A DNA stretch of 41,079 bases from a virus. Lineage: Duplodnaviria; Heunggongvirae; Uroviricota; Caudoviricetes. Position numbers and translations under genes: made by a program. The stretch covers positions 1 to 41,079 of the IMG/VR virus record IMGVR_UViG_2778261579_000010; one strand, given 5' to 3'. Of this stretch, positions 1,009-32,638 are shown one piece after another (the stretch's first letter is position 1; the number at the start of each line of letters is the position of its first letter). The notes under the pieces were generated by a model that saw nothing but the letters and a program-made list of their open reading frames with translations, was not told the DNA's origin and ran no database searches.

Positions 1009-1083
1009 GTCCTCTTAGTTAAATGGATATAACGAGCCCCTCCTAAGGGCTAATTGCAGGTTCGATTCCTGCAGGGGACACCA
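1009..1083 (+). tRNA. argW: tRNA-Arg (anticodon CCU), prophage attachment tRNA
   Basis: 75-nt cloverleaf: acceptor GTCCTCT, T-arm GCAGG-TTCGATT-CCTGC, anticodon loop CCTCCTAAG, 3' ACACCA; matches argW as recalled. Confidence 0.85.
1069..1083 (+). repeat. attL core (CTGCAGGGGACACCA) at the tRNA 3' end
   Basis: Exact 15-bp direct repeat with 39376..39390; the next base differs (T here, G at the right end). Confidence 0.8.
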
Positions 1084-5320: not shown

Positions 5321-5388
5321 GTTGGTTTTTCTCCACGGATTTACTGACAACCGAAGCCCTGACTGTTCCCGCAGTTGGGGCTTCAACT

Positions 5389-27794: not shown

Positions 27795-27823
27795 TAAAAA
27801 GGCCTGCAATTACCAGCAGGCCT
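27795..27823 (-). terminator. Rho-independent terminator downstream of the primase-helicase gene
   Basis: Minus-strand hairpin GGCCTGCTGGTAATTGCAGGCC followed by TTTTTATTT. Confidence 0.55.
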
Positions 27824-27852: not shown

Positions 27853-29733
27853 TTAATACTCCGTCACGTTTTCCTGTCGCCACGCCTCGTCATATTCCGA
27901 TTTCGGCATATTAGCGATGTAGCTATATGGCGACCCTGATTCAAGTTGCAGGAACTGGTGCGATTGCTCGTCAAGGAACAACGGGACACCACCTTCCCAA
28001 CCTTCGCCGTTACGTTGTTTTTCAAGCATCAAAACAGATGCCGGAGATGCCAGTAGCTGTTCGTCCTTCTCTGACATCTTTTCACCACTCTGAACTCTCT
28101 GTAACGCTCTCTCGCGAGCCTTGTTACGCCAGATGATGAAAAGGTTGTCTGTCAGGTCTGTTATCGCTCCAGAGCCTTTTACGTCCATTTTCCCGGTTGG
28201 TTTTTCTTCGCTGTCTCCTTTTCGCGAGTGAGTAACGAGAATGACGTGGGAGTTTGTTTTGTTTTTGAAGTCGCAAATCGAGTCAACAAACGCCTTCTGC
28301 CCGTTATAGTCATCGTCGCCTATGCCACATTTCATCAGGCTGTCGATGATGAATAACTGGATCCCGTATCGGCGGCGAGCGTAGTCGAATATTTCGATCA
28401 GCCTGTCGGCTTTCGCCGTTCCGGTCAGGCCAAACACCCAAAGTCTTTCGTCATAAAATTTAAATGCAGAGTCAATTTCCAGCACTGGCGGCATCTTGCA
28501 GCACGTCGCCTGACGGGTAAGGCGCTTAAGGAGAATACCAGGCTTCAGCTCAAGTGACGCGATGCACGTCTTCACACCCTGACGCATTGCCTCAAGTGCC
28601 ATATGCCCGACAACCTCCGTTTTTCCGTGACCGTTCACACCATTGACCAGCGTCAACTCTGCCTCACGGAACTGGAATTTATCTGCCAGAGATTCCCACG
28701 GTGGATTAAACAGATACTGCTGCTTGCCGTAGAAAGCGTTGATAGTGTCCTGGTAAAACTCTCGCGCGCTGTAGAGTTCTTCAGGATCGAAGTAGGATGC
28801 CGTGCCGATGTACTGCCAGATTTCATCCTCGGTAACACCGTTCATCAGGCATTCGTTGATGTCTTTGTACGGCAGAGTAACAAGACGGCAACGATGTTCA
28901 CCGAGTCGGCTTGCGATTTCCCTTGCGGCTTCACGACCAACATCATCAACATCCATCGAGATGAATATTTCCTCAAACCTGTCGAGGTTGTGATACTCAA
29001 ACTCAATCCACTGTTGCTTAGCGCCTTTCCCGCCACCAAACGGCACGGATAACGCCGAGATGCCGTATTGCGCATAGCTCATACAATCAATTTCGCCTTC
29101 GCAAAGTACAACCGCCCTCACGCCAGCGTCCAGAGCCTGCCATCCGAACAGACAAGGTTCGCAATCACCTTCTGCCATAATGACTTTCTTCCCGTCCGGG
29201 CGCTCAGTGCTGATTCGCTTTACCTGCAACAACTCACCATCGCGTTTGTACGGAATCACCAGAGCATCCAGTTCTCGCTCTCCATTCCACACCTTGCCGC
29301 TGACAACCTCGTAGCGCTTTACGATTTCTGGCGATATGCCACGCGATTGCAGGTACTCAAGATGGGATTCTGTTCTGGTAACGTAGCGGGCGATTTTCTT
29401 GCGGTCAGGTCTGGAGAATTTCTTCTCACGTTTGGCATCGAAATGGTGATCGTCATCCTTGATTCCGAGAAAGGCTTTCGCTTCCTGCATAGCCTGATGC
29501 AGGTTAATTCCACGACATGCCATCCACAAATCAAGCATGTCACCGCCGTCTCCCTCAGCGAAATCAGCCCATTTTTTCTTGCCGCTAAGGTTGACCTTAA
29601 GGCTGTTTCCCTTGTCACCGTTGACGTTACCGGCAACCCACTCATGCCCCTCTTTCTTGCCGTTTGGCAACAGGTGCGGAGCCACCCTGTCAACCTGCGC
29701 CCAAAGCAGGTCGCTAAGTTCACTTGGCGTCAT
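27853..29733 (-). CDS. Bifunctional DNA primase / replicative helicase (TOPRIM plus RecA-like helicase domains)
   Basis: 626 aa; central TOPRIM-like acidic cluster (VVLCEGEIDCMSY), C-terminal Walker A (GVNGHGKTE) and Walker B (QLFIIDSLMK) motifs; directly downstream of the O-like initiator. Confidence 0.75.
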   Translation of the reverse strand: MTPSELSDLLWAQVDRVAPHLLPNGKKEGHEWVAGNVNGDKGNSLKVNLSGKKKWADFAEGDGGDMLDLWMACRGINLHQAMQEAKAFLGIKDDDHHFDAKREKKFSRPDRKKIARYVTRTESHLEYLQSRGISPEIVKRYEVVSGKVWNGERELDALVIPYKRDGELLQVKRISTERPDGKKVIMAEGDCEPCLFGWQALDAGVRAVVLCEGEIDCMSYAQYGISALSVPFGGGKGAKQQWIEFEYHNLDRFEEIFISMDVDDVGREAAREIASRLGEHRCRLVTLPYKDINECLMNGVTEDEIWQYIGTASYFDPEELYSAREFYQDTINAFYGKQQYLFNPPWESLADKFQFREAELTLVNGVNGHGKTEVVGHMALEAMRQGVKTCIASLELKPGILLKRLTRQATCCKMPPVLEIDSAFKFYDERLWVFGLTGTAKADRLIEIFDYARRRYGIQLFIIDSLMKCGIGDDDYNGQKAFVDSICDFKNKTNSHVILVTHSRKGDSEEKPTGKMDVKGSGAITDLTDNLFIIWRNKARERALQRVQSGEKMSEKDEQLLASPASVLMLEKQRNGEGWEGGVPLFLDEQSHQFLQLESGSPYSYIANMPKSEYDEAWRQENVTEY

Positions 29734-29840
29734 GATTCCCTCAGATTGAGATTTTTAAACCAGAAATCGACAAACGAAATACTTAACCAGCCGTGGTTAT
29801 AACCAGCGACCAGTAGCGATTTGATTTTTGATTTCATGGT

Positions 29841-30701
29841 TCACCTGTCGAAAAACACGTAGCCAGTTTTCGATACGGTGATTGCGGATGATGGTTTGGA
29901 TTGTGGTTGAATAGTTTCTGGCTTCTCGTCGTTCCAGCGTTGACCGTTCAGGTAGCTCGATGGTAACAACCTGTCGAATCCGAACTGCTTACCATTCCTG
30001 CATGCGATGTCTTCTGCCAGCATCGTGGCAAACTCGCTTGCCGTACCCCTGGTAGTTTTACGCCATTCCCTGAACTGTGTTCTGAATGCCGAAGCCGCGT
30101 TTTTCTTCCCGGCTTTCCGCATGCCTGCACACCAGAATATTTCCTCGAATGCCTTGTCGGTTTCTTCGTGACGGTCAGATGATTTTTCACACTCCGTCCG
30201 AACACTTTCGGACATAGTGTTTTTATTATTTCTTTTTTCTTTTGTAATAGTTTCTTTTGTGTGTCCCTGTTTTGGTGACAGCGCTGTCACCGTTTTGGTG
30301 ACACTTTTTGTCACCAATGCAGTGACATTATCACCAGAGTAGTGACACCCTTCGATTTGCCATTCTTCGATGTTCTTGTTAGGCCCGATTTGCTGGCCTT
30401 CGCGAAGGATAACCTTCATCGCGATAAGCTCATTCTTGGCCTTGTTTACCTTCTGTCTTGGCAGCCTGGTAATTTGAGCTAACTGACTATCAGAAATGCG
30501 ATCCATCTTTTTACCGTAGCCGTATGTTTTACGGCATATGGCGTGGGCAACCTTGCTCTGATTTTTCGTTAAATCTGCGCCGATAAGCTCTTCATACAGG
30601 GCATTTGCAAGACGGGTATAACCATCTTCAACTTCTGCCACACGACGCTCCACAGGCCGTTGTGAAGGCCTTAAATGTGTTACGGTTGCAAGATTACTCA
30701 T
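29841..30701 (-). CDS. O: Replication initiator, lambda O-like
   Basis: 286 aa; N-terminal domain ([56 protein letters not shown]...GPNKNIEEW) matches lambda O as recalled; iterons lie inside the gene. Confidence 0.8.
30255..30345. repeat. Replication origin iterons inside the O gene
   Basis: Clustered repeats of GGTGACA / TGTCACC (e.g. TTTTGGTGACAGCGCTGTCACCGTTTTGGTGACAC) in the linker-coding region of O, as for ori-lambda. Confidence 0.7.
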
Positions 30702-30840
30702 GACCTTTCTCCTTCTGCATCAGCTTCACTTTTTCCAACTCAGCCCGGAATCGACCAGGCTGCTTGAAGCTGGACAGGAAGCGATCACGTAGTATGTGTT
30801 TGTGAATTTTGTCCTGGTAAGGACTGAGTTGTTTTGTCAT
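30694..30840 (-). CDS. Small ORF between cII and O (48 aa)
   Basis: Not in the supplied track; [48 protein letters not shown]; AGGAG RBS 7 nt upstream; its stop overlaps the O start codon. Confidence 0.4.
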
Positions 30841-30872: not shown

Positions 30873-31166
30873 TCAGAATTCCATCTGGATTTGTTCAGAA
30901 CGCTCGGTTGCCGCCGGGCGTTTTTTATTGGTGAGAATCGAAGCAACTTGTCGTGCCAATCGAGCCATGTCGTCGTCAACGACACCCCATTCAAGAACAG
31001 CAAGCAGCATTGAGAACTTTGGAATCCAATCCCTCTTCCACCTGCTGATCTGCGACTTATCAACTCCCACAGCTTCCGCTGTCTTCTCAGTTCCAAGCAT
31101 TGCGATTTTGTTAAGCAACGCACTCTCGATTCTTAGAGCCTCGTTGCGTTTGTTTGCACGAACCAT
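30873..31166 (-). CDS. cII: Transcriptional activator CII (lambda type)
   Basis: 97 aa from [51 protein letters not shown], near-identical to lambda CII as recalled. Confidence 0.95.
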
Positions 31167-31245
31167 ATGTAAGTATTTCCTTAGATAACAATTGATTGAA
31201 TGTATGCAAATAAATGCATACACCATAGGAGTGGTTTAATTTGAT

Positions 31246-31285: not shown

Positions 31286-32638
<1,353 letters not shown>

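Follow-up and report, generated by a model that had tools for sequence, protein, structure and literature searches.

Gene organization of the replication module

The window analysed here is the whole 41,079-nucleotide stretch of viral record IMGVR_UViG_2778261579_000010. Its replication module consists of three collinear ORFs on the minus strand: an O-like gene, a 35-aa ORF and a primase-helicase gene. The features are listed below in window coordinates, in the order in which the minus strand is read, with the evidence on which each one was called.

29841..30701, minus strand: gene of an O-like replication initiator, 286 aa (Pfam, NCBIfam, PHROG, BLASTP)
30360..30644, minus strand: Phage_rep_O / phage_O_Nterm domain, aa 20-114 (Pfam, TIGR01610, identity to lambda O)
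30262..30347, unstranded: four 19-bp iterons, presumed O-binding sites (palindrome pattern, register with ori-lambda)
about 30219..30260, unstranded: A-rich tract, ~83% A+T, next to iteron 4 (near-identical to the A/T-rich unwinding region of ori-lambda)
30189..30220, unstranded: 14-nt inverted repeat flanking the A-rich tract (corresponds in the alignment to the lambda ori palindrome)
29844..30188, minus strand: C-terminal domain of the O-like protein, aa about 172-286, presumed to recruit the helicase (PHROG 33384, co-inheritance with the primase-helicase)
29730..29837, minus strand: 35-aa ORF, MKSKIKSLLVAGYNHGWLSISFVDFWFKNLNLRES, between the O-like and primase-helicase genes (homologous to epsilon34 gp51 and ES18 gp60)
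27853..29733, minus strand: gene of a T7-gp4/Twinkle-type primase-helicase, 626 aa (Pfam, PHROG, phmmer, AlphaFold (AF2) and Foldseek)
29464..29733, minus strand: N-terminal zinc-ribbon-like domain without zinc ligands, aa 1-90 (TIGR01391, AF2, Foldseek)
28846..29109, minus strand: TOPRIM domain, aa 209-296, with E212, D261, D263 and D291 (Pfam Toprim_2, T7 gp4 mapping)
27952..28671, minus strand: SF4 (RecA-core) helicase domain, aa 355-594 (Pfam, T7 gp4 mapping, fold match)
27800..27823, minus strand: terminator-like hairpin with a T-run, 30 nt past the primase-helicase stop codon (candidate from a consensus scan only)

The pairing of an O homologue with a primase-helicase gene had been proposed in a preliminary description of this DNA. 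Its coordinates proved exact and the domains were confirmed, but it had overlooked the 35-aa ORF between the two genes. The stop codon of this ORF overlaps the ATG of the primase-helicase gene (ATGA). Compared with the epsilon34 allele, eight of its codons differ synonymously and eight non-synonymously, and it is kept in modules whose helicase is only 60-79% identical. Its product has no Pfam match even at E <= 10. An Rfam scan gave no match within the module itself, and the sequence suggests an oop-like terminator antisense to cII.

The C-terminal domain of the O-like protein, a gp51-like small ORF and a gp52-like primase-helicase lie here in the collinear arrangement of the ES18/epsilon34 type. 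We consider it probable, in one judgement that also takes in the mechanism proposed below, that the locus is an ES18/epsilon34/mEp043-type lambdoid replication module located within the pR operon of a P22-like phage of E. coli. This type of module is already known: it is common among lambdoid phages and has been described previously. P22-like phages with an O relative and a "nonhomologous primase-helicase" like that of ES18 have been reported (PMC10307801), gp50 of epsilon34 was presented as an origin binder adjoining a putative helicase (PMC2629481), and the Eru5 type has been listed (PMC8951638). Sequenced phages have included this type from ES18 onwards, for which the epsilon34 paper gives a 2005 reference, and thousands of Enterobacterales prophages carry it; protein clusters at 99% identity contain 5632 primase-helicase and 1106 O sequences. 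It is of practical relevance that Stx2a phages of the "Eru5" type, which occur in outbreak O157:H7 strains, are driven by the same primase-helicase half (PMC8951638). GenBank labels the genes of these phages "DNA replication protein O" and "DNA primase/helicase". The discovery value of the module is thus small, being of a known and correctly annotated type, and our search of the accessible literature found no experimental work or biochemistry on it.

The O-like initiator and its embedded origin

The sequence points to three parts in the O-like protein: an N-terminal origin-binding domain, a low-complexity linker, whose coding sequence is the origin, and a helical domain at the C-terminus. The N-terminal domain matches Pfam Phage_rep_O over aa 20-114 (E 1.1e-37) and NCBIfam phage_O_Nterm (TIGR01610, E 1.6e-30), and lambda O is 49% identical over aa 1-157 (BLASTP, E 2e-42). 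An O homologue that retains the iteron-binding domain, as first described, is thus borne out. The AF2 model, built from a 14-sequence alignment, is of low confidence, with a pLDDT of 50; residues 103-175 are predicted to be disordered and 176-258 to be helical.

Four iterons are found within the O gene, at 30262-30280, 30285-30303, 30309-30327 and 30329-30347, nearly where GGTGACA-type repeats had been placed in the preliminary description (about 30255..30345). Each is a 19-bp imperfect palindrome, TGTCAC-N7-GTGACA. Allowing up to two mismatches, the window contains seven occurrences of this pattern where 1.48 would be expected; the four copies with zero or one mismatch all fall within 86 bp. 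The four iterons align in register with the four of ori-lambda. Together with the A-rich tract, presumed to be the site of strand opening and helicase entry, they give an origin embedded in the initiator gene, as is found for lambda O-type initiators. By analogy, the O-like protein would bind these iterons sequence-specifically.

The repeats do encode a repetitive peptide (VT..VTK..VT) that is predicted to be disordered, and they could in principle be a mere by-product of coding this linker, with no origin at this place. However, every repeat is also an inverted repeat at the DNA level, the spacing of 20-24 bp is lambda-like, and lambda's own A-rich tract follows the repeats. In chimeric relatives, moreover, the sequence of the repeats shifts along with the N-terminal DNA-binding domain, a pattern typical of a protein and the site it binds. 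Because the DNA palindromes change together with the N-domain in these chimeras, the coding-artefact explanation was rejected, and we regard it as having a negligible chance of being right.

It is at the A-rich tract, too, that the two halves of the mosaic O gene are joined: matches to Stx2 phages stop at position 30225 and those to epsilon34 at about 30274. Beyond residue 157 there is no significant BLASTP similarity to lambda O, a hidden Markov model of the C-terminal domain scores lambda O at E 1.7, and no homology to the P-binding domain of lambda O was found in the C-terminus. The isolated domain has no Pfam match even at E <= 10, but it matches PHROG 33384 and carries the motif F..FW..(G/Y)..K.GKK.A..AF ... 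P.(S/T)YLNG.RW.DE, followed by a conserved VSKxGYVF tail. A homologue search with this domain alone returned almost only fragments, although proteins with HTH_36 and the C-terminal domain in frame were also seen.

This domain travels with the helicase. All 79 IMG/VR loci that contain it and have enough downstream DNA have the primase-helicase downstream (79/79). In natural chimeras, origin-binding N-domains of three kinds, each accompanied by iterons of its own, are joined at the A-rich tract to the same C-terminal domain, 35-aa ORF and primase-helicase. In addition to the combination described here, epsilon34 has a lambda-type N-domain with lambda iterons, and Min27 (Eru5) has an HTH_36 N-domain with GGGGCAGGAGCTGCCC repeats. 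In 27 loci whose helicases are 34-100% identical, an initiator-sized ORF of 189-385 aa directly precedes the helicase gene, with Pfam matches to HTH_36 in six, DUF1376 in four and Phage_rep_O in two. Several of the distant partner proteins share a C-terminal FW..YP.K.GK...TWLN..RW.DE motif. The natural exchange of N-domains on a constant C-domain supports the proposal, made from sequence, that the C-terminus of O recruits the helicase; simple physical linkage could account in part for the co-inheritance. These three-way domain swaps also indicate which part of O is the candidate for mutation in studies of helicase recruitment.

The primase-helicase

The 626-aa protein matches PHROG 239, "DNA primase/helicase" (E 1.5e-171), and the sequence of T7 gp4 (phmmer, E 2.7e-23). 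AAA_25 scores above its Pfam cut-off and DnaB_C just under its own. The AF2 model has a pLDDT of 91.4, and in Foldseek it matches T7 gp4 with E 1.6e-27 and TM up to 0.75; the fold and domain order of gp4 are recovered over about 500 columns against 5ikn, 1q57 and 6n9x (E 1e-27 to 1e-26), while the fold of the helicase domain also matches DnaB. The matches to Toprim_2, AAA_25 and T7 gp4 agree with the earlier view of this protein as a TOPRIM plus RecA-like helicase fusion. The primase and helicase motifs on which that view depended are both present, with conserved catalytic residues. Nor is the gene a P-type loader, as had also been stated: lambda P shows no similarity to the protein (BLASTP, best E 0.8).

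The helicase half contains the SF4 motifs: the Walker A lysine K371, the catalytic glutamate E395, the Walker B aspartate D464, the motif H3 histidine H502 and, as a putative arginine finger, R574. Residue conservation was scored across 124 diverse relatives of 35-62% identity: K371, E395, D464 and H502 are kept in 124/124 and R574 in 118/124. T7 gp4 residues K318, E343, D424 and H465 map onto conserved residues of the protein, and the arginine finger was assigned by inspection, since the MAFFT alignment to T7 gp4 misplaced it beside an insertion. By analogy, the protein would be a hexameric 5'-3' helicase that also synthesizes oligoribonucleotides. A role in defence or anti-defence, also considered for a TOPRIM-ATPase protein, was rejected: the gene occupies the replication slot of pR, and its product has the T7 gp4 fold and invariant helicase residues.

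The module might still use host DnaB, with the 626-aa protein acting mainly as a primase or accessory ATPase, or with the 35-aa protein or the O C-terminal domain recruiting DnaB-DnaC. There are lambdoid phages with an O homologue alone, which have to rely on host factors (PMC12315714). Here, however, the SF4 motor residues are all invariant and the fold matches a subunit of the T7 gp4 helicase ring; moreover, no DnaC-like or P-like loader was found in the window, where a tblastn search with lambda P gave no P-like ORF (E of at least 0.37). Continued use of DnaB is therefore highly improbable in our judgement.

In the primase half, Toprim_2 matches aa 209-296 (E 3e-12), and the lysines K172 and K182 lie just upstream of this domain. 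The catalytic Glu, the DxD motif and the further Asp of TOPRIM, as well as the two lysines of the RNA-polymerase subdomain, are all present: E212, D261, D263, D291, K172 and K182 map to T7 E157, D207, D209, D237, K122 and K128. The preceding domain is the unusual part of the protein. A beta-ribbon is modelled at residues 26-64, TIGR01391 (dnaG) matches aa 26-143, and Foldseek matches the Aquifex primase ZBD+RPD (2au3), whereas the N-terminal 202 aa have no Pfam match even at E <= 10. Although the ribbon is homologous, it is not a Cys4 or Cys3His zinc-binding domain: residues 1-72 contain no Cys, and the ligand positions are occupied by G35, G39, D57 and E60, of which G/G/D are kept across the family. 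These positions come from a manual alignment to DnaG, the MAFFT alignment to T7 gp4 having misplaced the zinc-finger region.

The zinc-binding domain of T7 gp4 and DnaG is needed for template-directed priming, which is abolished in T7 gp4 when this domain is removed, and human Twinkle, which has no zinc ligands, has no primase activity. The loss of the ligands here is what would be expected if the 626-aa protein replaced DnaB but were primase-dead or primase-poor, like metazoan Twinkle, with priming left to host DnaG or to pR/oop RNA; the oop-like terminator antisense to cII would fit such an arrangement. Against this, the TOPRIM acidic residues are kept in 122-123 of the 124 relatives, K172 in 117/124 and K182 in 97/124, a degree of conservation unlikely for a dead active site, and human Twinkle no longer has these residues. 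Furthermore, gp4-type helicases have no counterpart of the DnaB N-terminal domain, which recruits DnaG, and the zinc-less TOPRIM primases P4 alpha and plasmid TraC/Sog are active. A helicase without useful primase activity is thus unlikely, at perhaps one chance in several, and we favour a protein that both unwinds and primes.

Proposed mechanism and comparison with known systems

In the proposed mechanism, dimers of the O-like protein would bind the four palindromic iterons in their own gene through the Phage_rep_O domain and form an O-some that destabilises the adjacent A-rich tract, both by analogy with lambda. The C-terminal domain of O would then recruit the hexameric T7-gp4-like phage helicase to the opened DNA in place of P-DnaB, as co-inheritance suggests, and the conserved 35-aa protein may take part in this step. 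A gp4-type ring would load on single-stranded DNA without a separate loader, as in T7, after which the same polypeptide would unwind the fork with its SF4 motor and probably prime with its TOPRIM/RNA-polymerase domain; the RNA primers would be extended by the host Pol III holoenzyme. The phage would then do without host DnaB, DnaC and probably DnaG, but would still require host polymerase, SSB, gyrase, Pol I and ligase. As a whole, this model of a lambda-type origin served by a gp4-like primase-helicase is probably correct.

Its parts differ in strength. Judged from sequence, independence from DnaB is likely, and it is well motivated because the SF4 residues are invariant across the family and no loader or P homologue is present. 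Independence from DnaG is only plausible, because the zinc-binding domain has lost all four ligands despite the conserved TOPRIM acidic residues and lysines. No phage polymerase was seen in the window, going by the annotations of relatives, so that replication would have to draw on host Pol III, SSB, gyrase, Pol I and ligase. The module is thus not self-contained, contrary to the preliminary description.

More tentatively, and with a chance that we put somewhat below even, the locus may encode a natural hybrid replisome in which a zinc-less gp4-like protein, docked at a lambda-type origin by the C-terminal adaptor of O (possibly the VSKxGYVF tail together with the 35-aa protein), primes and unwinds for Pol III without DnaB, DnaC or DnaG. 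If so, it would offer a compact two- or three-gene system for the coupling of a foreign helicase-primase to Pol III, and for the choice of templates by a TOPRIM primase that lacks a zinc finger. Independence from DnaB and DnaG, if true, would explain how phages of this kind could evade host controls or defences that work by way of DnaB loading.

The closest known systems are the modules of mEp043 and Sf101, which share 98.7-98.8% DNA identity over all 2849 bp and have the same three ORFs, with no functional difference. The helicase half is shared with ES18, epsilon34 and g341c and with the Eru5 Stx2 phages (Stx2a_F403, Min27, vB_EcoP_24B). ES18-type and Eru5 phages have the same C-terminal domain, 35-aa ORF and primase-helicase (88-98% identical), and epsilon34 is 88% identical in DNA from the A-rich tract through gp52. 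The iterons distinguish the present module from epsilon34/ES18, TGTCAC..GTGACA against the lambda-type ATCCCTC..GAGGGA, and the specificity of the N-domain differs accordingly. In the Eru5 phages, the N-domain is HTH_36 instead of Phage_rep_O; the helicase described here has no intein, unlike theirs.

Lambda has the homologous O N-domain, and its O gene likewise contains the origin, including four palindromic 19-bp iterons and a near-identical A-rich tract; both modules follow cro and cII in the pR operon. Unlike in lambda, the C-terminal domain of O is unrelated and P is absent, so host DnaB would not be hijacked; the phage brings its own helicase and putative primase. With T7 gp4 and mitochondrial Twinkle the protein shares the domain order (ZBD-like, RNA-polymerase/TOPRIM, linker, SF4 helicase) and the catalytic residues. 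It differs from T7 gp4 in the absent zinc ligands and in an insertion of ~30 residues before the arginine-finger motif. Furthermore, no cognate phage polymerase was seen, so that it must work with host Pol III. Recruitment would depend here on an origin-binding initiator, and in T7 on DNA opened by transcription.

P22 genes 18 and 12 likewise combine a lambdoid initiator with a phage replicative helicase instead of a loader (PMC10307801), but P22 gp12 is of the DnaB type and has no primase domain, whereas the helicase here is of the gp4 type and fused to a TOPRIM primase. The alpha protein of P4, a temperate element that also uses host Pol III, is similarly a DnaG-type primase fused to a replicative helicase (PMC4889955). 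P4 alpha, however, unites an SF3 helicase and its own origin-binding domain in one polypeptide, whereas here a separate O-like protein would bind the origin.

Phage background and gene order

The window represents an E. coli phage or prophage that is mosaic and P22-like (Lederbergvirus-type). In the structural half it is ~95% identical to IME10, APC_JM3.2 and similar phages, and RecT-type recombination genes are found in its early-left arm. The antisense sar RNA, known from the immI/ant region of P22, was matched at 5321-5388(+) (Rfam, 95.6 bits), which is consistent with a P22-like phage. A tRNA gene near the left end (1009-1080(+); Rfam, 63 bits) may represent a prophage attachment site or host flank. 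The replication module is located within the pR operon, on the minus strand, in the following order.

31605-32237, plus strand: cI (S24 peptidase plus HTH)
between cI and cII, minus strand: cro-like HTH gene
30873-31226, minus strand: cII
30694-30840, minus strand: DUF2740 ORF, 48 aa, between cII and O, overlapping the O start; annotated in phage mEp043 too
29841-30701, minus strand: O-like gene, 286 aa
29730-29837, minus strand: 35-aa ORF, between O and the primase-helicase
27853-29733, minus strand: primase-helicase gene, 626 aa
after the 626-aa gene: terminator-like hairpin, then small ORFs and ninB

A strong terminator hairpin at 30897-30924(+), GCCGCCGGGCG followed by a T-run, runs antisense to cII at its 3' end, where lambda has its oop RNA terminator, and resembles that terminator in sequence. 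Production of an oop-like antisense RNA is probable.

The O-like initiator and its origin

The lambda-O-like initiator with an N-terminal O domain, as proposed in the preliminary description, was borne out by matches of the 286-aa protein to Phage_rep_O (Pfam, residues 20-114, E 1.1e-37) and phage_O_Nterm (NCBIfam, E 1.6e-30), and by the 49% identity of residues 1-157 to lambda O (E 2e-42); similarity to lambda O is no longer detectable past residue 157. The gene contains four 19-bp imperfect palindromes, TGTCAC-N7-GTGACA, spaced 20-24 bp from start to start, and an inverted repeat.

30262-30280: iteron
30285-30303: iteron
30309-30327: iteron
30329-30347: iteron
30189-30220: inverted repeat, 14 nt, after the A-rich tract

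Allowing up to 2 mismatches, the whole window holds seven occurrences of the pattern (1.48 expected), and all four copies with 0-1 mismatch fall inside 86 bp. When aligned to ori-lambda, the four repeats match iterons 1-4 of lambda in register. Almost every base of the iteron 4 3' half and of the A-rich tract that follows (~30219-30260) is the same as in lambda. The iterons claimed at about 30255..30345 were thus correctly described, with coordinates right to within a few bases.

The primase-helicase and the 35-aa ORF

The 626-aa protein contains primase and helicase motifs on formal analysis, the absence of which would have refuted the preliminary description. Toprim_2 was found at residues 209-296 (Pfam, E 3e-12), AAA_25 exceeds its cut-off with DnaB_C just under, and the protein matches PHROG 239, "DNA primase/helicase", along its entire length (E 1.5e-171). 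Among proteins of solved structure, those closest in sequence are T7 gp4 (E 2.7e-23, residues 192-539) and Twinkle (E 6.5e-14). A Foldseek search with an AlphaFold model (input of 56 relatives; pLDDT 91.4) returned T7 gp4 chains (E 1.6e-27, ~500 aligned columns, TM up to 0.75), followed by Twinkle, DnaB and the Aquifex DnaG ZBD+RPD. In the alignment, T7 gp4 primase residues K122, K128, E157, D207, D209 and D237 correspond to K172, K182, E212, D261, D263 and D291, and helicase residues K318, E343, D424 and H465 to K371, E395, D464 and H502. The family comprises 8368 clusters at 50% identity (E <= 1e-3); among 124 full-length members with 35-62% identity, every one has the four helicase residues, while the four TOPRIM acidic residues are kept in 122-123, K172 in 117, K182 in 97 and R574, a candidate arginine finger in a K-Q-R-N-G motif, in 118. 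The protein has no similarity to lambda P, and P-like sequence is absent anywhere in the window. A TOPRIM plus RecA-like helicase protein, not a P-type loader, is therefore upheld by domains, fold and catalytic residues.

Residues 1-90 form a homologue of the DnaG/gp4 zinc-binding domain, with TIGR01391 dnaG matched at residues 26-143 and a five-stranded ribbon at residues 26-64 of the model. There is no cysteine in residues 1-72; manual alignment to DnaG places G35, G39, D57 and E60 at the four zinc-ligand positions, and G35, G39 and D57 are themselves conserved in 117-118 of the 124 members. Template-directed primer synthesis by T7 gp4 and DnaG requires the zinc domain, and metazoan Twinkle, whose zinc ligands are missing, does not act as a primase. 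That the TOPRIM residues and lysines are so strictly conserved argues that catalysis is retained, and we infer that the protein may have primase activity. Bypass of host DnaB would be a reasonable expectation and that of DnaG an uncertain one. The term "self-contained" was an overstatement, since we saw no polymerase in the window and DNA synthesis must rely on host Pol III.

The 35-aa ORF, missed by the preliminary description, corresponds to epsilon34 gp51 and ES18 gp60. Its stop overlaps the primase-helicase start codon (ATGA), and the two are translationally coupled. It has no family match; the motif MK..IK.LL.AGYNHG.L...V..(W/C)F.....LR is kept where the helicase is only 60-79% identical, and the epsilon34 allele differs at eight codons synonymously and at eight non-synonymously, which marks it as a genuine third gene of the module.

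In some relatives (loci L013, 5586-6620, and L043, protein P0012, and the "P" gene of Min27), an intein of ~330-345 aa with a LAGLIDADG homing endonuclease interrupts the helicase P-loop between GK and T, starting with Ala-Cys and ending with His-Asn before Thr; the window's copy has no intein. In six IMG/VR relatives (L037, 4483-4977; also L052, L055, L077, L082 and L084), insertion of a free-standing 164-aa NUMOD4/HNH_3 homing endonuclease gene separates the 35-aa ORF from the primase-helicase. Together, these make the module a selfish-endonuclease hotspot.

Modular exchange and comparison with known systems

By Megablast, the whole 2849-bp module is 98.7-98.8% identical in phages mEp043 and Sf101. 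The Stx2 phages (Stx2a_F403, Min27, 24B and others) and the ES18/epsilon34/g341c group match the helicase side only, the matches stopping at 30225-30274, i.e., at the A-rich tract. Alignments of the window with epsilon34 and Min27 define three distinct origin-recognition units, all fused at this tract to the O C-domain, 35-aa ORF and primase-helicase.

this window: Phage_rep_O with TGTCAC..GTGACA iterons
epsilon34: Phage_rep_O with lambda-type iterons
Min27: HTH_36 domain with three GGGGCAGGAGCTGCCC repeats

In Min27 (L004, 4409-5295 and 1501-1836), a one-base difference immediately 5' of a GAAAAAAC run puts the annotated O into the -1 frame across the conserved C-domain DNA, and the primase-helicase falls into two ORFs of 860 and 111 aa. 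Both features may reflect sequencing error, decay or frameshifting; in-frame HTH_36 plus C-domain proteins exist elsewhere (P0414, P0415).

The primase-helicase is present in 79/79 IMG/VR loci having the C-domain and enough downstream DNA. In 27 loci of distant relatives (helicase 34-100% identical), an initiator-sized ORF of 189-385 aa lies directly upstream, with HTH_36 in six, DUF1376 in four and Phage_rep_O in two (Pfam). Several of these initiators carry the C-terminal motif FW..YP.K.GK..A..AW ... P.TWLN..RW.DE. A C-domain HMM found loci L110 (E 1e-6) and L096 (E 1e-5) and did not detect lambda O. All initiators of the close primase-helicase subfamily (L088, L089, L090, L091 and L116) end in a V-S-x-x-G-Y-V-F tail (29844-29876, minus strand, in the window), which is kept even in the otherwise unrelated initiators L088 and L091. 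This tail is a candidate helicase-docking peptide; alternatively, its sharing may stem from physical linkage to the helicase block. In lambda genetics, the O N-terminus pairs with the origin and the O C-terminus with P. The modular logic is alike here, with N-domain and iterons swapped against a constant C-domain-helicase unit, and it is mainly on this ground that the O C-domain would be expected to recruit the primase-helicase.

The structural interpretation in the preliminary description was correct, and lambdoid replication modules of this kind are common and had been described before. A literature search found no experimental study of it. GenBank labels its genes "DNA replication protein O" and "DNA primase/helicase", and the epsilon34 genome paper assigned lambda-O-like origin binding to gp50, placed a putative helicase next to it and noted identity with ES18 (PMC2629481). 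The Stx "Eru5" type, represented by Stx2a_F403 and described as an HTH_36 protein plus primase (PMC8951638), has the arrangement seen in Min27, and Stx2a_F403 has the helicase half in common with the window, as do other Stx2 phages.
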